Positions 2,393 through 11,882 of a stretch of 11,882 nucleotides of DNA are shown here, one piece after another. The position numbers and the translations under genes were made by a program. Within the stretch, counting starts at the first letter, position 1. Each line of letters opens with the position of its first letter. The notes below the pieces were generated by a model, which searched no databases, was not told the origin of the DNA, and was given only the letters and a program-made list of their open reading frames with translations. The DNA is from a virus (Duplodnaviria; Heunggongvirae; Uroviricota; Caudoviricetes), in the IMG/VR virus record IMGVR_UViG_2548876958_000016; one strand, given 5' to 3'.

Positions 2393-2828
2393 CATCCGTC
2401 CGGACGCAGCCGCCGCCGCACTCACTACGCTGATGCACGCGCTTATTGATATTGAATGCACGGCAGAGCTTGCACAAAAGGAAGAACGGGAGGAATACAC
2501 ATTGTTCGCCCTGGAATGTATCCGATACACCGCCACGCGGTCGCTGAATGACGCTAAAAATATTCTTGTTGCTGATTGTGAAAATGGGGGGGTTATGCGT
2601 GATGATCGTTTTAATTCCCTGAAACAGGAATTTTCCGGCGTTCCTGATGATGCGGCTGATGCGCTTTCGTCAATGCCAGAACTTATTAGAGCGGCTTTTT
2701 TCTTACTTTCCACGAGAGAATATAAATCAACGGGGCTTGATGTACTGAATATCGCCGCCGATTATGCGGAATATGTGGCAGAGGCGCGTTATAGAAGAAA
2801 ATTTCCTGAGGATGTAAGCCATGCGTGA
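2382..2828 (+). CDS. Hypothetical protein (148 aa)
   Basis: SD GGAGGGG (2369-2375), 6-nt spacer, ATG 2382; overlaps the upstream stop by 11 nt (translational coupling). Translation MCNNIRPDAAAAALTTLMHALIDIECTAELAQKEEREEY... No family recognised. Confidence 0.65.
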   Translation: MCNNIRPDAAAAALTTLMHALIDIECTAELAQKEEREEYTLFALECIRYTATRSLNDAKNILVADCENGGVMRDDRFNSLKQEFSGVPDDAADALSSMPELIRAAFFLLSTREYKSTGLDVLNIAADYAEYVAEARYRRKFPEDVSHA

Positions 2829-3054
2829 TATTTACCACCAAACAATAGACCGCGCATTTCTTGCACTTTCTCACAGTGAAAACATGCTGGAAATATTGCG
2901 CATATGGCTTGAAACACTTGGCGACAATGAACGCGACAAACAAAAATCAAGAATTGCCACAGCATTAATAACGCTTCTTGAGCCTGTAATAATGGAACTG
3001 CAAGAAATAGATCTATTGCACGACAGATATAAAGAACAGCACACCGGAGAATAA
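2821..3054 (+). CDS. Hypothetical protein (77 aa)
   Basis: ATG 2821 overlaps the upstream TGA (2826-2828), giving ATGCGTGA coupling. Translation MRDIYHQTIDRAFLALSHSENMLEILRIWLETLGDNERDKQK... No family recognised. Confidence 0.6.
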   Translation: MRDIYHQTIDRAFLALSHSENMLEILRIWLETLGDNERDKQKSRIATALITLLEPVIMELQEIDLLHDRYKEQHTGE

Positions 3055-3059
3055 AAATA

Positions 3060-3359
3060 ATGAAACTTAAATATTCTGGCTTAACTGCCAGTGGCAACAC
3101 TCACCCTAAATTTACGCGCGGTGATATTTACCGCGACCAGTACGGCGGCACGGTAATGATTAAGGACGTGGAAGAACGGCGCGTAACCTACCGCCGTGAA
3201 GGTTACGAATATGATTGCGTGATGCCTGTTTATCAGTTCCGGCGTGATTTTTCTCTGGTACAGACCGCGCCGCATAACGTGCCCACCAGCAACGCCAGGG
3301 CACGGGCAAACATCCAGAAGCTGAAAACCATGGTTAACGGATTCAGGGGCAAGAAATGA
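3060..3359 (+). CDS. Hypothetical protein (99 aa)
   Basis: GGAGA SD upstream of ATG 3060; its stop overlaps the helicase start (ATGA at 3356-3359). Translation MKLKYSGLTASGNTHPKFTRGDIYRDQYGGTVMIKDVEERR... No family recognised. Confidence 0.65.
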   Translation: MKLKYSGLTASGNTHPKFTRGDIYRDQYGGTVMIKDVEERRVTYRREGYEYDCVMPVYQFRRDFSLVQTAPHNVPTSNARARANIQKLKTMVNGFRGKK

Positions 3360-4756
3360 AAAGCGCACCGAACTTAAAAAAACAGCCTTACGACAAGATG
3401 ACCGAAGTCATTATTTTTGCGGGTAGTGATGCCTGGGCACATGCGAAACAGTGGCAGGAACAGGACGGGCGACTGGCTGGCGATAATGTGCCTCCCGTTG
3501 TGCTGGCTGATGATCAACTGGATGAACTGGCAGACCTGAGAATCATCGACGAGGGGCGCTATTGTGTCCGGCTGTACAAGGCAGGCCACATCAGGCCATC
3601 AAATATTAATGCCATTGCGCACAAGCTGGCGGCGGCGGGTGTAACTGATGCGAATTATTACCCCGAAGGGATGCACAGCCATATGCGGGAGAACTGGCGC
3701 GAATACCTGGAACGGGTGCGCGGGAAAGAGCCGGCGGAAGAAAAAAACCACCAGCGAAAAACCACGCTACCGATGAGCGTTGGATCTACCGGATACGACA
3801 CGCAACTGGATTACGTGGTTAAGGGGATTATTCCGGCGGTATCGCTATGCAGCATATACGGGGCTAGCGGGTCCTATAAATCATTCCTTGCCGGATCGTG
3901 GGCGTGCCATGTTGCCACTGGTCGCCAGTGGGGAGGCCGCAGGGTTGCACATGGTGCGGTTCTCTATGTGGTTGGTGAAGGCGGTATAGGTGTTCCGCGT
4001 CGTGTAAAAGCCTGGGAGGTTGTGCACGATGAGCAGGTGAAAAATCTGTATCTGGTAAACCGCCCCATCTTTCCGGCTGCCCCGCTTGATGTTGATGAAA
4101 TGGTTATCGCTGCCCGTCAGGTGGAGCGGGAAACGGGTAAACCTGTACGCATGATTATTCTGGATACGCTGGCGCGTTGCTTTGGTGGGAATGATGAAAA
4201 TGATTCCCGTGATATGGGGGCGTTTATCCGTGGTTGTGACGAACTGAAACGACGCACAGGGGCCACGGTGCTGGTGGTTCACCATTCCGGCAAGGATGAG
4301 ACGAAAGGCGCGCGCGGTTCCAGTGCATTTCGTGCTTCGCTGGATGCTGAATACCGGATACGCAGGGAGGACGCAGGAAGCGAAGCGCTGGTTATCTCAT
4401 GCACCAAAATGAAGGACGCGGAGGAACTCAAAGAAGCCGCATATGACTTACGCGTGGTGGAGCTTTTTACCGACGCTGACGGTGAATTAATCACGTCGCT
4501 GGTGGTGGTGGATGATCCGCGCCCTCCTGTTGAACTGGAGCGCATCGAGGAGGCAGGGAACAAGACGGAAAACCATACCGCGCTATGGGGGTGCATCCGT
4601 TCACGCACACAGAACGGCGACAAGTGCACGATCCCGCTGTTACGTGATGACATGAAAAAGCTGGGGTATGAAATGAAAAACTTCCGGCGCTGGCTGTACA
4701 AGCTGGAAAAAGATGGGGTTATTCGTATCGATGGGGATGATGTAGCGCCGCTATAA
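3356..4756 (+). CDS. Replication initiator/helicase, RecA-fold AAA ATPase (RepA/DnaB-like, PICI Rep-type), 466 aa
   Basis: Walker A GASGSYKS (within IYGASGSYKSFLAG), Walker B-like hhhhD (RMIILDTLARCFGG) and a VLVVHHSGKD motif typical of RepA/DnaB-family helicase domains. N-terminal ~150 aa is a separate domain, possibly origin-binding. Last gene of a coupled operon and immediately followed by an iteron array. Confidence 0.85.
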   Translation: MKSAPNLKKQPYDKMTEVIIFAGSDAWAHAKQWQEQDGRLAGDNVPPVVLADDQLDELADLRIIDEGRYCVRLYKAGHIRPSNINAIAHKLAAAGVTDANYYPEGMHSHMRENWREYLERVRGKEPAEEKNHQRKTTLPMSVGSTGYDTQLDYVVKGIIPAVSLCSIYGASGSYKSFLAGSWACHVATGRQWGGRRVAHGAVLYVVGEGGIGVPRRVKAWEVVHDEQVKNLYLVNRPIFPAAPLDVDEMVIAARQVERETGKPVRMIILDTLARCFGGNDENDSRDMGAFIRGCDELKRRTGATVLVVHHSGKDETKGARGSSAFRASLDAEYRIRREDAGSEALVISCTKMKDAEELKEAAYDLRVVELFTDADGELITSLVVVDDPRPPVELERIEEAGNKTENHTALWGCIRSRTQNGDKCTIPLLRDDMKKLGYEMKNFRRWLYKLEKDGVIRIDGDDVAPL

Positions 4757-4946
4757 AAGTGAGGAGCAAAAGCGAGGGGGATAGAAAGAGGGCCAAAATT
4801 AGCCCGCTCTCCCTCACTTTTCGACCTGTATACATCCTCAAAAGTGAGGGGTAAAAAAATACTTATGAAACACACACATAGAAAAACCGAAAATCCCAAC
4901 TGCGACGAAGTGAGACGCTTGAAAAAGTGAGGCGAAAAAGTGAGAG
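4755..4946. repeat. Iteron array (candidate satellite replication origin): repeated AAAAGTGAG(G/A)
   Basis: Direct copies at 4755-4764, 4840-4849, 4923-4932 and 4937-4946 (the last two 14 bp apart); a degenerate copy GAAGTGAGAC at 4908-4917; an inverted copy CCTCACTTTT at 4812-4821. All lie in the intergenic region directly downstream of the rep-like gene, the usual ori position in PICIs. Confidence 0.6.
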
Positions 4947-4956
4947 GTTGCGAGAA

Positions 4957-5208
4957 ATGACCCAAAAACGCAGAGACAGAACAGAGCCAAAATATAAAGC
5001 GTTAGACATGACTGAGCACACCTTAAAGGTGGCAATCAGAACGATAGACCGCCACACGCGGGAAGGATACGCGAAGGAACATCCCGACCTGATAAGCGCA
5101 TTCATGACCACGGCGGCGGCAAACTTTGCCACGCTGACAGAACGGGAGATTGCCGAAGCGGAACAGGTAACAACCATCAACGTTAAAACCGGAGAGGTGG
5201 AATTATGA
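4957..5208 (+). CDS. Hypothetical protein (~83 aa; track ORF starts at 4927 inside the iterons)
   Basis: ATG 4957 is the first in-frame start after the iterons; GAGG at 4943-4946 could serve as SD. The stop overlaps the ssb start (ATGA 5205-5208). Translation MTQKRRDRTEPKYKALDMTEHTLKVAIRTIDRHTREGYAKEHPDLISAF... An alternative start is ATG 5008. Confidence 0.5.
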   Translation: MTQKRRDRTEPKYKALDMTEHTLKVAIRTIDRHTREGYAKEHPDLISAFMTTAAANFATLTEREIAEAEQVTTINVKTGEVEL

Positions 5209-5615
5209 CGGCACAGATAGCCGCTTACGGGCGGCTGGTGGACGACCCGCAGGTAAAACAGACCAGCAAGGGCACACCGATGACGCTGGCGCGTATGGCG
5301 GTATCTTTGCCATGCAGCCAGGCACAGGACGGACAGGCGACGTTATGGTTATCGGTCATCGCATTTGGCAAACAGGCCGACTTCCTGGCTAAACATCAAA
5401 AAGGCGATGTTGCCAGCGTATCCGGCACGATGCAGGTAAGCCAGTGGACCGGACAGAACGGAGAAACGCGGCAGGGCTGGCAGGTTATCGCAGACAGCGT
5501 AATCAGTGCCCGCGCGGCACGTCCAGGCGGGAACAGACGCAAAACCACAGGCACACAGGGTAATCAGCCACCAGCGGGAGGCGATGACCCTTACGGTGAT
5601 GATATTTCGTTCTGA
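5205..5615 (+). CDS. ssb: Single-stranded DNA-binding protein (SSB-like OB-fold), 136 aa
   Basis: SD GGAGAGGTGG with 4-nt spacer. N-terminal GRLVDDPQV...LWLSVIAFGKQADFLAKHQKGDVASVSGTMQVSQWTGQNGETRQGWQVIAD follows the SSB OB-fold pattern (compare E. coli SSB GNLGQDPEV...[50 protein letters not shown]). A Gly/Pro-rich linker and acidic tail DDPYGDDISF resemble the canonical DFDDDIPF tail. Confidence 0.75.
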   Translation: MTAQIAAYGRLVDDPQVKQTSKGTPMTLARMAVSLPCSQAQDGQATLWLSVIAFGKQADFLAKHQKGDVASVSGTMQVSQWTGQNGETRQGWQVIADSVISARAARPGGNRRKTTGTQGNQPPAGGDDPYGDDISF

Positions 5616-8540: not shown

Positions 8541-8564
8541 GGCCGGAGAAATCCGGCTTTTTTT
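8541..8564 (+). terminator. Intrinsic terminator (copy 3 of the repeated hairpin)
   Basis: GCCGGA (8542-8547), loop GAAA, TCCGGC (8552-8557), T-run 8558-8564; almost base-for-base identical to copy 1. A second hairpin ACGGGTCC/GGACCCGT (8566-8573 and 8584-8591) follows and overlaps the start of cos. Confidence 0.7.
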
Positions 8565-8581
8565 ACGGGTCCTTTCCGGCA

Positions 8582-8640
8582 TATGGACCCGTTACGGGGC
8601 GGCGACCTCGCGGTTTTTCGCTATTTATGAGCCTTTTCAG
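8582..8640 (+). other. cos site 1: lambda-type cosN with a divergent cosB-side flank, oriented toward the small terminase gene
   Basis: GTTACGGGGCGGCGACCTCGCGGTTTTTCGCTATTTATGA (8591-8630) matches, with one mismatch, my recollection of the lambda cohesive-end region (GGGCGGCGACCT then CGCGGGTTTTCGCTATTTATGA); the 12-nt cohesive-end sequence sits at 8597-8608. After TTTATGA the sequence diverges from lambda cosB. Confidence 0.75.
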
Positions 8641-8741: not shown

Positions 8742-9284
8742 ATGAAATCGCACCTGATGAACAAAAAAAACATGGCGAAAAGCTGCCGTGTAAGTGCGAC
8801 AGCGTTCGACAAGTGGGGAGTGACTCCCGTTGAACGTAAAGGCCGTGAGGCGTTTTACGATGTTGCCAGCGTGATAGACAATAGGGTTAACAATGCAATT
8901 AGCCAGCTTACAAACGACAAAGGCGATATTGATGATGATGAACTCTTACGAGTCAGGATCAGATTACTGACAGCACAGGCGGAGGCGCAGGAACTTAAAA
9001 ACGAGCGCGATCGCGGTGACGTGATTGATACTGAGTTTTGCCTGTACGCGCTTTCAAAGCTGGCGAGTCAGATTTCATCAATCATGGACAGCCTCCCGCT
9101 TACTATGCAAAGGAGCTTCCCACAGATTACCCACGCCATGCTGGATAGGCTTAAAAGGGAAGTGGTTAAAGCCTGTAATGCCAGTGCCAGAGTTGCCGAC
9201 AACCTCCCACAGATACTGGCTGATTACTTGAAAGAAACAACCGGAAACGTACCGGAAAAGTTGCTACAGAAGAAAGGCGAGTAA
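8742..9284 (+). CDS. Terminase small subunit, lambda Nu1 family (180 aa; true start may be ATG 8757)
   Basis: Strong similarity to lambda Nu1 as recalled: LLTAQAEAQELKNERDRGDVIDTEFCLYALSKLASQISSIMDSLPLTMQRSFP (lambda LTRAQADAQELKNARDSAEVVETAFCTFVLSRIAGEIASILDGLPLSVQRRFP) and N-terminal MNKKNMAKS...FDKW (lambda MEVNKKQLADIFGASIRTIQNW). The C-terminal region that interacts with the large subunit in lambda looks conserved; the N-terminal DNA-recognition region is more diverged. Confidence 0.85.
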   Translation: MKSHLMNKKNMAKSCRVSATAFDKWGVTPVERKGREAFYDVASVIDNRVNNAISQLTNDKGDIDDDELLRVRIRLLTAQAEAQELKNERDRGDVIDTEFCLYALSKLASQISSIMDSLPLTMQRSFPQITHAMLDRLKREVVKACNASARVADNLPQILADYLKETTGNVPEKLLQKKGE

Positions 9285-9299
9285 CAGACGCGCAATTAT

Positions 9300-9489
9300 T
9301 GAACAAAACTGAGAAACGACATGAAAGCGTCATAAATCGCCATTTTAGATGATTACCGTGTCGTTTCTTTTTATTGTGTATCTATTTAAAAACAAATAGT
9401 TATGTTCGAGAAGTACCGACATGCTTTTTCCAGAAAAATTTTCATAAACAGATAAAAACCGCGAGGTCGCCGCCCCGTAACGGGCCATA
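9300..9489 (-). other. cos site 2: inverted lambda-like cos (cosN plus cosB-like flank) on the minus strand, pointing back toward terS
   Basis: Reverse complement of 9454-9489 equals the site-1 core. Read on the minus strand it continues GGGCGGCGACCTCGCGGTTTTTATCTGTTTATGAAAATTTTTCTGG..., then CATAACTATTTGTTTTTAAATAGATAC, AAAAGAAACGACA and GTCGTTTCTC. These resemble lambda TTTATGAAAATTTTCCGG, the I1-region CATAACTTAATGTTTTTATTTAAAATAC and R-site-like GTCGTTTCC elements, from memory. Confidence 0.75.
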
Positions 9490-9821: not shown

Positions 9822-10421
9822 CTTGCTGATATTCCCGATAACGCAAAATTGCGCTGGCTACATCCCTCACATCTGAGGACTGTTAACCAGAAGGCCGGAA
9901 TATATTCACAAACTACGAAATTTTCGTAGTTTAATTAATGGTCAGATTAATCGCTAACCCGCTGATATTTTCGGAAACCTCAATTTGAGGAAGTCGGAAG
10001 CGTCACCCTTCATATTCTGAATGGTCATAATGACCACGCAGACCATCAAGGCAACCACAACGAACATCGTTACGGTTGGAGCTTTTACCCCACTGGGGGA
10101 AAGGTATTACGATAATCATAACACCTACCGAACAGGTAAAACCCACCAGCCTGATTAACAGTTAACCGGAAAAAAATCCGGTAGCCCCGTTATGGGGATC
10201 CCCATATCGACATTAACGCCCCTCATGAATTGGTGCGCTTCCCCCTGGAAAGATTACCCGCCTGTATATTTCTTGTGTCTATTTGTTCCACGTTGTTTCA
10301 TACAGTGCACCGAACGGTGTAGTTAATGGTGTAGTCAATTTGCTGTTTTTAGCACTTTTTGCAGTGTGGGTTGTTTAATTAAATCAATGGTTTGCCTTGC
10401 TGTGGTGATAAAAGGACATAT

Positions 10422-11882
10422 TTATTCATCTTTCGGCGCAGAATGCTGGCGACCAAAAATCACCTCCATCCGCGCACCGCCCAGCATGCTCTCTCCGGCG
10501 ACGATTTTACCCTCATATTGCTCGGTGATTTCGCGGGCTACCGCCAGCCCTACACCTTGCCCAGGGCGTAAAGTATCAACCCGTTGACCACGGTCGAAAA
10601 TGACCTCTCGCTTGCTTAATGGAATACCGGGGCCATCATCCTCGACCACAATATAGAGATGCTCGTCGGTTTGCCTTGCAGAAATTTCGACAAACTCGAG
10701 GCAATATTTACAGGCATTATCCAGCACGTTGCCCATCACCTCGACAAAATCGTTCTGCTCACCGACAAAGCTGATCTCTGGCGAAATATCGAGAGAGATA
10801 TTGACCCCTTTGCGTTGATACACTTTGTTCAGCGCTGAGGTGAGATTGTCCAGCAGTGGGGCGACCGGATGCAGCTCGCGGCTGAGCAATGTCCCGCCGC
10901 GCATACTGGCACGATGCAGGTAGTAGCCAATTTGCTGTGAAATGCGGCTGATTTGCTCCAGCATTACCGGCTCAGCATCACTGACGCTCATCTTTTCACT
11001 ACGCAGAGAACGCAGCGTACTTTGCAGCACCGCCAGTGGCGTTTTCAGACTATGGGTCAGGTCGGTGAGCGTCGTACGGTATTTGTCGTAACGTTCGCGT
11101 TCACTTTTTAACAATCGGTTCAGGTTTCGTACCAGACTGGTCAGTTCTCGCGTTGTGGCTGGATTGAGCAATTCGCGGTTATGTTCTTCCAGTTCGCGGA
11201 CTTCTTTTGCCAGGGCTTCGATGGGGCGTAAACTCCACCAGGCGGCGACCCACAGCAGCGGGATCACTAACAGCAGATTGGCTGAGAGCACATAGATAAA
11301 CCAGCTCCAGACCATATAGGAACTTTTTAGCTCCACCGGAATGGTATCCACCACCACAATGGTTAATTTTGGCATCCGCGATGTTGCCGGGTAGACGTTT
11401 ACTGCCACCGAGTGGGTCATCTCCGCGTCGTCATCATCTTCCCGCACTTCCTGCAACTGTTGCTGTATCGAATGATCTCCACTCAGCAAGAGGCTGGTAT
11501 CGTTAACATCCGCTTCAATTTCATGAAAACCATTCGATTTCAGCCAGTCAGGCTGGATCATCTTCATCAGCCAGGGCACGTCACGTTGCGCCCATAAAAG
11601 CTGCCCGTTCTCATCATAAATTAGCGTCATGGTGGGGCTTTGCTTGTCGATATTTTCGGGTAACTCGACATGCAACTTATTGTTTTCCCACTTCGCAAGG
11701 GTATAGAACAGATTGCTCTCGCCACGTAACAGCCGAAACGTAGTTTTATCGAAACTGACGCTATAACCGATCAGCGCGACCATTCCGTAGGCAAGCGAAA
11801 GCACCAGTACTACCGCAGCCGTTGCCAACAGAAAACGTACCCGCAGTGAGAGCGGGAAAAAAAGACGCAGTAATTTTTTCAT
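10422..11882 (-). CDS. phoQ: Sensor histidine kinase PhoQ of the PhoP/PhoQ two-component system (486 aa, complete)
   Basis: Translation begins [40 protein letters not shown]..., has the acidic periplasmic patch EDDDDAE, the phospho-acceptor His box ([12 protein letters not shown]) and G-box motifs (DDGPGIP, GQGVGL). It matches E. coli PhoQ as I recall it in length and sequence. The window ends exactly at its start codon. Confidence 0.97.

Follow-up and report, generated by a model that had tools for sequence, protein, structure and literature searches.

Between a helicase gene and the following open reading frame lies an intergenic stretch of about 200 bp that, judged from its repeats and by analogy with a sibling island, is in all likelihood the origin of vegetative replication of a phage-inducible chromosomal island (PICI). 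The island is integrated and belongs to the EcCIRM12579/EcCICFT073 type. The finding is largely ordinary, since the layout has already been described for PICIs.

The window, i.e. the whole stretch of 11,882 nucleotides that was analyzed, is a PICI integrated at roxA/ycfD-phoQ; it belongs to the EcCIRM12579 type and has EcCICFT073 as a sibling. Gram-negative PICIs are islands of ~10–15 kb at a specific att site, and the window indeed possesses an att site, int as its leftmost island gene, a regulator of the AlpA type and unidirectional genes running rightward, while its set of phage structural and lysis genes is incomplete. The gene content, which was taken from RefSeq tables of identical or near-identical islands and from Pfam, reads int, AlpA-type HTH, Icd-like, DUF4222, helicase, the iteron array, a hypothetical gene, SSB, PerC, capsid E, decoration protein and TerS. 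The island is flanked by roxA and phoQ, and the att core GGACATATTT is located at 10414–10423. An identical helicase is encoded by EcCIRM12579, an island type listed in Table S1 of Fillol-Salom 2018 (PMC6092414). The island also encodes a regulator of the PerC family. Megablast against phages returned only short matches to the cos region. A capsid-forming PICI like EcCIEDL933 was considered and dropped: only a capsid-E homolog, a decoration protein and a Nu1-like TerS were detected by Pfam and RefSeq, but no portal, protease or TerL, and the island matches the EcCICFT073/EcCIRM12579 type instead. Identity with the published EcCIRM13514 was likewise rejected, as that element resides at yicC-dinD. 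The present island is nevertheless found in strain RM13514 as well, at roxA-phoQ.

Iteron array and start of the next gene

The 8-mer AAAGTGAG occurs five times in the 11.9-kb window, where 0.26 copies are expected, and all five copies lie within 4756–4944. Exact copies of the 10-mer AAAAGTGAGG, one of them inverted, are accompanied by the variant AAAAGTGAGA and by two degenerate copies (Table 1). The sequence-only reading had counted a single degenerate copy; the repeats that it described are otherwise confirmed. The copies form two sets, 4755–4849 and 4908–4945, with an AT-rich stretch in between, where GC content reaches the minimum of the profiled stretch 4300–5400 (0.32 at 4840–4899). Three direct copies and one inverted copy are present on the left side, while the right side is direct throughout. 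The iterons measure 8–10 bp and are spaced by 12–17 bp, and the first copy overlaps the stop codon of the helicase gene (TAA, 4754–4756). In the divergent pair, 9.5 bp separate the dyad centre from the inner end of either iteron. A search of 4700–5000 for DnaA boxes, with one mismatch allowed, found none. Scanning of 4600–5100 revealed no sigma-70 promoter consensus and no terminator consensus on the plus strand, but one non-significant hairpin on the minus strand. No other candidate origin was found in the island, and the 8-mer is absent elsewhere in the window. A full-text literature search with the iteron sequence returned only unrelated primer or sequence matches; iterons of several E. coli PICIs are listed in Fig. 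2a of PMC6092414.

Table 1. Features of the rep-ori region and of the genes and segments downstream.
Feature	Position	Strand	Evidence or remark
rep, 466-aa RepA/DnaB-type RecA-fold (Pfam AAA_25) helicase, presumed self-loading initiator	3356..4756	+	ORF, Pfam, RefSeq
N-terminal module, Rep residues 1–122	3356..3721	+	common to EcCICFT073 SF3-type Pri-Rep, unrelated beyond
Exchangeable rep-ori cassette: helicase motor, C-terminal domain, whole iteron region	3722..4954	+	comparison with sister island L082
C-terminal winged-helix domain (predicted), residues 401–466	4556..4753	+	AlphaFold2, Foldseek
Codon AAC of N442, preceding helix 3 (F443–K452) of the C-terminal domain	4679..4681
Candidate replication origin, whole (~200 bp, intergenic between rep and next ORF)	4754..4955	.	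repeats, GC, conserved layout
Left iteron set: AAAAGTGAGG 4755–4764 (+), AAAAGCGAGG 4768–4777	4755..4777	+	repeat search
Divergent iteron pair: CCTCACTTTT 4812–4821 (minus-strand copy of the 10-mer), AAAAGTGAGG 4840–4849 (+)	4812..4849	.	repeat search
Palindrome TGTATACA, iterons symmetric on both sides	4827..4834		centre of divergent pair
AT-rich spacer, GC ~0.32, candidate unwinding region	4850..4905	.	composition profile and published PICI/SaPI layout
Right iteron set: AAGTGAG 4908–4914, AAAAGTGAGG 4923–4932 (+), AAAAGTGAGA 4936–4945 (+)	4908..4945	+	
Next gene, 83 aa, PHROG 1231, function unassigned	4957..5208	+	RefSeq, PHROG profile, homology boundary 4955
ssb, follows the 83-aa gene	5205..5615		SSB Pfam match
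Nu1-like TerS	8742..9284		Pfam
Phage-21 cos-like segment, adjoining terS	9388..9481		megablast

It had also been claimed that the last iterons overlap the start of the next gene. This does not hold: the start at GTG 4927 merely reflects the mechanically longest ORF and coincides with the GTG of the iteron consensus in the copy at 4923–4932, whereas the real start is the ATG at 4957. RefSeq places the start of the gene in this island at the latter codon, downstream of every iteron; the PHROG profile (83 positions) aligns over positions 1–82 from residue 1 of the corresponding protein; and allele L089 carries an in-frame TGA 9 nt upstream of the equivalent ATG. From these observations and the homology boundary it follows that the right set ends 11 nt before the start codon, covering only the untranslated leader and the likely ribosome-binding region. 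A coupling of replication initiation to expression of the ssb block, as suggested in the sequence-only reading, is not supported.

The array is found 3' of the helicase gene in ~70 of 88 homologous loci of Enterobacterales. In 80 loci of other Enterobacterales, the motif AGTGNGG reaches a density of 10.6 per kb in the 365 bp past the helicase stop, as compared to 0.37 per kb elsewhere. The order of the elements is conserved: direct copies at the stop codon, the first one again overlapping it, are followed by the inverted copy, a TATA spacer, a direct copy, a further spacer and direct copies. The left and right sets comprise 2–4 and 2–5 direct copies, respectively, at the same places, and this layout is kept across genera while the iteron sequence varies. 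The divergent pair is present in 69 of the 88 loci with a spacer of mostly 20 nt (n = 60; 22 nt, n = 7; 18 nt and 21 nt, n = 1 each), and every one of these spacers contains TATA. The core array is missing from five related loci (L022, L070, L071, L075 and L081), which look like decayed copies. Within E. coli, the 221-bp origin region is at least 99% identical in 369 genomes, and the matches listed of that band are 100% identical.

Rep domains, cassette exchange and iteron specificity

A Pfam scan of Rep detected AAA_25 only (residues 148–315, E = 2.4e-43). Among solved structures, the RSF1010 RepA helicase (1G8Y, E = 6e-5) is the closest relative of the ATPase core, and to it the protein owes its RefSeq designation 'helicase RepA family protein' (WP_000833618.1). 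The domains D5_N, DUF5906 and Pox_D5 of SF3 ATPase cores, which occur in the CFT073 Pri-Rep, were not found in Rep. Residues 1–122 are 62% identical to residues 1–125 of the CFT073 Pri-Rep with no match beyond (BLASTP), and residues 3–129 match PHROG 864, 'DNA primase'. The isolated N- and C-terminal pieces gave no Pfam match. For the C-terminal domain, a domain-only AlphaFold2 model (pLDDT 89–90) predicts three helices and a β-hairpin, and the top Foldseek matches in the PDB are all winged-helix domains (probability 0.9–0.99, TM 0.55–0.67, with weak E values of 0.025–0.15). Full-length Rep was modelled poorly (mean pLDDT 60), and for this reason Foldseek returned only weak matches of the RecA/Rad51/KaiC type.

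Comparison with sister island L082 delimits the segment to which the array belongs. L082 is otherwise 89–95% identical to the present island, but there is no similarity over 3722–4954: blastn aligns 2595–3721 at 89%, then breaks off, and homology resumes at 4955. At this position, L082 carries a D5_N/DUF5906 Pri-Rep together with GGTAGAYA iterons, which is the same cassette as in EcCICFT073. By this alignment, motor, C-terminal domain and iterons form a single cassette that is exchanged as a whole, with breakpoints at 3721 and 4955. The array also accompanies the helicase in L085, L086, L090 and L092 despite different downstream genes.

Residue 442 of the C-terminal domain tracks base 7 of the iteron in 67 of 68 distinct C-terminal domains (N-A 28/28, H-G 10/10, K-G 20/21, S-C 8/8, G-C 1/1), counts that are phylogenetically non-independent and reflect few independent switches, at least one of them within near-identical E. 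coli C-terminal domains. In their last 45 residues, proteins P0007 (locus L089) and P0015 are distinguished by S/A, V/M and H/N alone, and their iterons are AAAGTGGGG and AAAGTGAGG, respectively. When the rule was stated in advance, it correctly predicted the iterons of all four newly fetched E. coli alleles. The sequence-only reading had assigned DNA recognition to the N-terminal domain of Rep. However, this domain cannot set specificity, because it is common to the CFT073 Pri-Rep, whose iterons are different. Conversely, Xenorhabdus homologs with an unrelated primase N-terminus, comprising Zn-ribbon and Toprim domains, have the same AAAGTGAGG iterons; specificity follows the residue in the C-terminal winged helix. 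On the basis of covariation and the structural model, the iterons are almost certainly read by the C-terminal rather than the N-terminal domain of the adjacent helicase. As far as computation goes, the model, the co-exchange, the residue-base link and the prediction fit a helicase initiator with an iteron-reading C-terminal winged helix and a cognate origin.

We lean towards a broader interpretation, in which the C-terminal winged helix and the iterons constitute a simple code that is readable from sequence: Asn at residue 442 would specify A, His or Lys would specify G, and Ser or Gly would specify C at base 7, with other positions setting the 3' flank. Under such a code there would be many rep-ori cassettes that are mutually orthogonal, are swapped as a whole among satellite islands of Enterobacterales and are grafted onto differing N-terminal modules, either a Zn-ribbon/Toprim primase or the 122-residue domain that also occurs in SF3-type Pri-Reps. 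The fixed TATA-centred dyad would then be a universal site of helicase assembly and melting.

Known origins and a proposed mechanism

Origins of Gram-negative PICIs are located directly 3' of rep and consist of two iteron sets around an AT-rich region (Fillol-Salom 2018, ISME J, PMC6092414). According to the same paper, which also discusses satellite phage P4, autonomous replication through rep and ori has been tested for EcCICFT073, SaPIs and EfCIV583; rep and ori of EcCICFT073 maintained a temperature-sensitive plasmid, and deletion of the ori region reduced maintenance of the replicon. The present island shares with EcCICFT073 the integration site, the att core and the gene order, an intergenic origin directly 3' of rep that is followed by a hypothetical gene, ssb and perC, the two iteron sets with an AT-rich stretch in between, and homology in the first 122 residues of Rep. 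In contrast, Rep of EcCICFT073 is an SF3-type D5_N/DUF5906/Pox_D5 primase-helicase with ~12 GGTAGAYA iterons in 289 bp, whereas a RecA-fold AAA_25 motor and AAAGTGAG iterons in 200 bp are found here, and the experiment concerned the EcCICFT073 cassette only. Replication function is thus extrapolated from a sibling with unrelated Rep and iterons. That an iteron-type origin directly follows the helicase gene and that the array is the cognate binding array of this helicase, as had been proposed, is supported by the comparison of loci, by the paradigm established for PICI origins and by the experiment on EcCICFT073.

Rep proteins of SaPIs are self-loading helicase-initiators, whose C-terminal winged helix reads 5–6-bp iterons directly downstream of rep (Ubeda et al.; Qiao et al. 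2022, PMC9371898). Their origins have an AT-rich centre, and cognate Rep-ori pairs differ between islands (PMC9371898). The same arrangement is predicted here: a helicase-initiator with a C-terminal winged helix, iterons directly 3' of rep and an AT-rich centre. However, SaPI Reps belong to the SF3 clade of AAA+ proteins (PMC9371898), while the present Rep has a RecA fold of the RepA/DnaB type. No sequence homology was detected between them, the iterons are longer here (8–10 bp), and an inverted copy is missing from the right set.

The iterons of IncQ/RSF1010 are bound by the separate initiator RepC, and priming is carried out by RepB'. RSF1010 RepA (279 aa) is not known to have a DNA-reading domain, whereas the island Rep possesses an extra N-terminal domain and the predicted C-terminal winged helix. 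The earlier label 'RepA-like' is apt for the ATPase fold, but not beyond it. When ten island proteins were scanned against Pfam, neither a RepC or RepB homolog nor a primase family was found, and the IncQ combination of RepA, separate RepC and RepB' primase with ssi sites is not represented. The alpha protein of P4 is a multidomain satellite protein that combines helicase and origin recognition, with a C-terminal DNA-binding domain reading octamer repeats; this primase-helicase belongs to SF3 and depends on two sites, ori and crr, that lie apart. A satellite-encoded helicase joined to an origin-reading C-terminal domain is likewise predicted here, but with one compact origin, an SF4-like motor and no recognisable primase domain. 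Iteron plasmids of the Rep_3/RepA type (pPS10, F, R6K, P1) have 17–22-bp iterons in helical register, a non-helicase WH1-WH2 initiator and a requirement for DnaA boxes and DnaB/DnaC loading. Repeated initiator sites beside an AT-rich region and a winged-helix reader, predicted in our case, are common to both, but the iteron core of 8–10 bp, the spacing, the helicase as initiator and the lack of a DnaA box set the island apart from classical iteron plasmid origins.

These comparisons suggest the following scenario. Upon induction, the rightward operon would produce the 466-aa Rep, whose C-terminal winged helix may read the iterons AAAGTGAG(G), the N-cap residue N442 of the recognition helix contacting the A at iteron position 7. 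Rep would bind at three places, namely the left direct set, the divergent pair on TGTATACA and the right direct set, with the divergent pair as the putative core site of assembly and melting. Melting could take place at the TATA-centred dyad, in the AT-rich stretch 4850–4905 or in both, and the RecA-fold helicase, which resembles RSF1010 RepA and DnaB, would load itself without a separate initiator. As no Pfam primase was detected among the scanned proteins and a DnaA box is lacking, priming is presumably performed by host DnaG, helped by the island SSB encoded just downstream.

Other readings of the array and its implications

The repeats could bind Rep mainly for autoregulation, for copy control by handcuffing or as a transcriptional roadblock to the ssb block, while initiation occurs elsewhere or through the helper phage. 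Plasmid iterons commonly serve both replication and regulatory roles, the array is situated in the leader of the next gene with its last copy ending shortly before the ATG, and, no separate promoter having been found, transcription from upstream must cross it. On the other hand, the conserved TATA-centred dyad and the AT-rich spacer are origin-like and needless for a pure operator, the island offers no alternative candidate origin or further 8-mer copies, and deletion of the equivalent region in EcCICFT073 lowered replicon maintenance (PMC6092414); a mainly regulatory role is thus improbable. Even less likely is an operator or promoter of the ssb-perC block at which some other regulator, such as AlpA or PerC, binds in place of the helicase. 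An intergenic position upstream of a gene block and an inverted pair among the repeats would suit many operators, but the repeats are exchanged along with the motor and the C-terminal domain of the helicase, with AlpA and the downstream genes unchanged, they are retained where other genes follow downstream, an iteron base can be predicted from a residue of the helicase, and no sigma-70 consensus was found in 4600–5100.

We give hardly any credence to a packaging (cos/pac) site for the small terminase of the island. Small terminase subunits bind repeated sites and a Nu1-like TerS is encoded, but the phage-21 cos-like segment is located elsewhere, next to terS, and the array stays with the helicase in L085 and L086, whose packaging and capsid modules are quite different or not visible at all. 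A chance cluster, or purine-rich low-complexity sequence without function, is just as implausible. With two mismatches allowed, the 10-mer matches 18 times in the window against 10.5 expected, i.e. without enrichment; however, exact and one-mismatch copies are all confined to 190 bp, none of 200 shuffled windows contained five or more 8-mers, and the layout persists across genera although the iteron sequence changes. Copy statistics, AGTGNGG density and the conserved dyad already refute this explanation.

Interpreted as a replication origin, the array has a modest general implication: PICI-type origins can use a helicase of the RepA/DnaB fold with a winged helix of its own, and not only SF3-type Reps. 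Several hundred sequenced E. coli genomes, among them O157:H7, O55:H7, O145 and O111 strains, carry this island type next to phoQ, and knowledge of its origin and cognate initiator helps to explain how the island is amplified following induction of a helper phage. If the proposed code is true, these proteins would represent a family of self-loading SF4-type helicase-initiators whose mechanism has converged with that of SaPI and viral SF3 initiators, and the specificity of Rep would be reprogrammable through a single residue.

The iteron array and the island carrying it

Repeats are really present behind the gene of the 466-aa helicase (Rep), and the stop codon of this ORF (3356-4756) is overlapped by the first of them. 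Direct reading confirmed the direct and inverted copies listed in the sequence-only reading, and there is one more degenerate copy than it had counted. Five copies of the 8-mer AAAGTGAG are present in the 11,882-base window, all of them within 4756-4944; 0.26 copies would be expected, and none of 200 shuffles gave five. The GC profile of 4300-5400 has its minimum (0.32 at 4840-4899) between the two repeat groups. The inverted copy and the direct copy following it are exactly symmetric around a palindrome.

Repeats of the array and the right att core, with positions in the window
Feature	Sequence	Position	Strand	Basis
Iteron, exact copy	AAAAGTGAGG	4755-4764	+	direct sequence reading
Degenerate iteron	AAAAGCGAGG	4768-4777
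Iteron, exact copy	AAAAGTGAGG	4812-4821	-	direct sequence reading
Palindrome at symmetry centre	TGTATACA	4827-4834
Iteron, exact copy	AAAAGTGAGG	4840-4849	+	direct sequence reading
Degenerate iteron	core AAGTGAG	4908-4914
Iteron, exact copy	AAAAGTGAGG	4923-4932	+	direct sequence reading
Iteron variant	AAAAGTGAGA	4936-4945
att core	GGACATATTT	10414-10423

Several hundred E. coli chromosomes, including O157:H7, O55:H7, O111 and O145 strains, match at least 80% of the window, with best identities of ~97-98%. Between roxA (ycfD) and phoQ, the genes encode a tyrosine integrase, an AlpA-type HTH regulator, Icd-like and small hypothetical proteins, a DUF4222 protein, a "helicase RepA family protein", an 83-aa hypothetical protein, SSB, PerC, a lambda-E-type major capsid protein, a head decoration protein and a Nu1-like small terminase, in this order. 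The phage-inducible chromosomal islands (PICIs) EcCICFT073 and EcCIRM12579 occupy the ycfD-phoQ site with the att core GGACATATTT (Table S1, Fillol-Salom et al. 2018, PMC6092414). In the window, this core lies over the 3' end of phoQ and marks the right island end, and a protein identical to the helicase (WP_000833618.1) is encoded by the RM12579 island. Because of gene order, insertion site, identical helicase and att core, the window is a catalogued PICI of EcCIRM12579 type. The only matches to phage-collection DNA were segments 9388-9481 (90% identity to the phage 21 cos/terminase-IHF region) and 8559-8630 (96% to a PhiR5_1 segment); the former, just downstream of the Nu1-like terS, is probably the cos site of the island. 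A 308-aa ORF (1221-2147) spans the truncated Icd-like pseudogene of RefSeq plus an intergenic gap and had no match in a Pfam search.

Conservation of the array and its exchange together with rep

Helicase homologs were collected and aligned (alignment A1, 14 homologs), and 80 loci from other Enterobacterales were fetched. In most of the 80, at least three copies of one 8-mer are found in the 350 bp past the helicase stop, and the generic core AGTGNGG reaches 10.6 per kb in post-stop segments versus 0.37 per kb in the remainder of these loci. Although the iteron sequence varies, the layout is kept. Two to four copies in direct orientation, located at the stop codon or overlapping it, come first; an inverted copy and, across a spacer, a direct one follow, and a further 55-70 bp separate these from a last group of two to five direct copies. 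The divergent pair is present in 69/88 loci, with TATA at the spacer centre in all 69; of these spacers, 60 are 20 nt long, seven (E. coli group) 22 nt, one 18 nt and one 21 nt. The core array is absent from L022, L070, L071, L075 and L081. These five loci look like decayed copies, and in L081 the helicase is truncated.

In the AAGTGGGGGA class (L044, L064, L074 and others), an iteron lies inside the last rep codons, encoding ...KVGD and the stop, and thus the C-terminal tail of the protein and a predicted Rep-binding site use the same bases. Several iteron classes have a non-iteron motif, GAAACCC..CATTACTGG, just past the central direct iteron (+87 to +99, counted from the helicase stop, in L032, L034, L035, L037, L038, L046 and L074). 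This motif may serve priming or the binding of a host factor. The EcCICFT073 origin, whose Rep is unrelated, has it too (about 14184 of locus L088), and the window's origin lacks it.

The window and a sister island, L082, share 89-95% identity on both flanks, with no similarity across 3722-4954. At this position L082 carries a D5_N/DUF5906 primase-helicase followed by ~12 GGTAGAYA repeats, and the EcCICFT073 cassette is the same. Therefore, helicase motor, C-terminal domain and iterons are swapped as one cassette. In four further loci (L085, L086, L090, L092), the downstream genes differ and the array still comes after the helicase. By these comparisons, the array belongs to the helicase and not to neighbouring genes.

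Predicted recognition of the iterons by Rep

Binding of the iterons had initially been assigned to the N-terminal domain of the helicase. However, residues 1-122 share 62% identity with the N-terminus of the EcCICFT073 initiator Pri-Rep, a Rep with different iterons, and Xenorhabdus homologs possess an unrelated Zn-ribbon/Toprim primase N-terminus, yet AAAGTGAGGA iterons. Since the domain is common to a Rep with other iterons and is replaced in homologs that keep AAAGTGAGGA, it does not set specificity, and the assignment was abandoned. The domain (3356-3721; L088 12242-12616) matches PHROG 864 'DNA primase' and had no Pfam match; being common to a RecA-fold helicase and the SF3-type Pri-Rep, it is one module attached to two unrelated motors, and may act as an adaptor or be a degenerate part of a primase. 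In this helicase family, the Walker A-like motif (residues 169-176, 3860-3883) reads GASGSYKS, with tyrosine replacing the second glycine of GxxxxGK[ST], and is unchanged in 14/14 aligned homologs.

The iterons are likely read by the C-terminal domain. AlphaFold2 predicts three helices and a beta-hairpin for residues 401-466 (pLDDT 73-82 when modelled within the full protein and 89-90 when modelled alone), and every top Foldseek match in the PDB was a winged-helix domain, including DNA-bound IdeR/DtxR, MarR-/IclR-type regulators, MCM winged-helix domains and the DnaD N-terminal domain (probability 0.9-0.99, TM 0.55-0.67, E-values only 0.025-0.15). Iteron base 7 is tracked by the residue preceding the aromatic that opens helix 3 (N442 in the window's Rep). 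Among 68 distinct C-terminal domains, which are not phylogenetically independent, base 7 is A with N (28/28), G with H (10/10) or K (20/21), and C with S (8/8) or G (1/1). The prediction, set beforehand from these counts, that E. coli alleles with KHF for KNF have AAAGTGGGG iterons held in 4/4 newly fetched, previously unexamined alleles. The H alleles P0007, P0091 and P0111 go with AAAGTGGG(G) and the N allele P0015 with AAAGTGAGG; in the last 45 residues, P0015 and P0007 differ solely by S/A, V/M and H/N. The classes cut across host taxonomy: a single Pantoea dispersa genome contains two (L034 and L046, contigs of one assembly), and both are also found inside Rosenbergiella and inside Kluyvera. 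A second residue-base pairing is suggested by L007, L015, L025 and L079 (from Xenorhabdus and a metagenome-assembled Enterobacteriaceae genome). In these alleles, helix 3 is followed by ...KLENDG..., with N replacing Q or H, and base 5 of the iterons (AAATGAGGAA) is A rather than G.

Probable origin function and relation to known replicons

Conserved layout, co-exchange of the cassette and the residue-442 rule make it very likely that the repeats are the island's origin and the binding array of the helicase, as originally proposed. The supposed overlap with the next ORF did not hold. The GTG at 4927, where this ORF begins in a mechanical ORF list, is the GTG within iteron 4923-4932. The real start is ATG 4957, because RefSeq places it there in identical islands, the alignment of its product with the PHROG 1231 profile (83 positions) begins at residue 1, sister-island similarity picks up again at 4955, and in the L089 allele the equivalent ATG is preceded, at a distance of 9 nt, by an in-frame TGA. 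An 11-nt gap separates the last iteron from ATG 4957, and the coding sequence is free of iterons.

Upon induction, the rightward operon would yield Rep, whose winged helix would bind the iterons. Assembly may be nucleated by the divergent pair at the TATA-centred dyad, followed by melting of the dyad, of the AT-rich stretch 4850-4905 or of both, and by self-loading of the RecA-fold helicase, the core of which is Pfam AAA_25 with RSF1010 RepA as closest solved relative. As there is no DnaA box in the origin and Pfam detected no primase domain among the island proteins scanned, host DnaG is the likely primase. Scanning 4600-5100 revealed no promoter or + strand terminator consensus, and hence transcription from upstream probably crosses the origin. 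SSB is encoded by the second gene downstream; coupling of replication to ssb expression is speculation.

In IncQ replicons, a separate RepC protein reads the iterons, and therefore the window's origin is not of this type. Nor is it a classical iteron plasmid origin, given its 8-10 bp iterons, helicase initiator and absent DnaA box. Rep is no member of the SaPI/P4/D5 helicase-initiator family, because its ATPase is AAA_25 and not SF3. The origin has the architecture of PICI/SaPI origins and is proposed to work like one. In SaPIs, the Rep helicase loads itself and has a C-terminal winged helix that recognises 5-6-bp iterons directly downstream of rep (PMC9371898). For PICIs, two iteron sets flanking an AT-rich region immediately 3' of rep are a published rule (PMC6092414), and thus the sequence-only reading restates known architecture; the array is possibly depicted already in a published figure. 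The replication experiment it suggested has been performed on the sibling island: with EcCICFT073 rep and ori in a temperature-sensitive plasmid, rep was required for maintenance and ori deletion lowered it (PMC6092414). The origin is a further example of the known PICI type; what the follow-up gained, besides correcting ORF overlap and binding domain, is a testable residue-to-base specificity rule.
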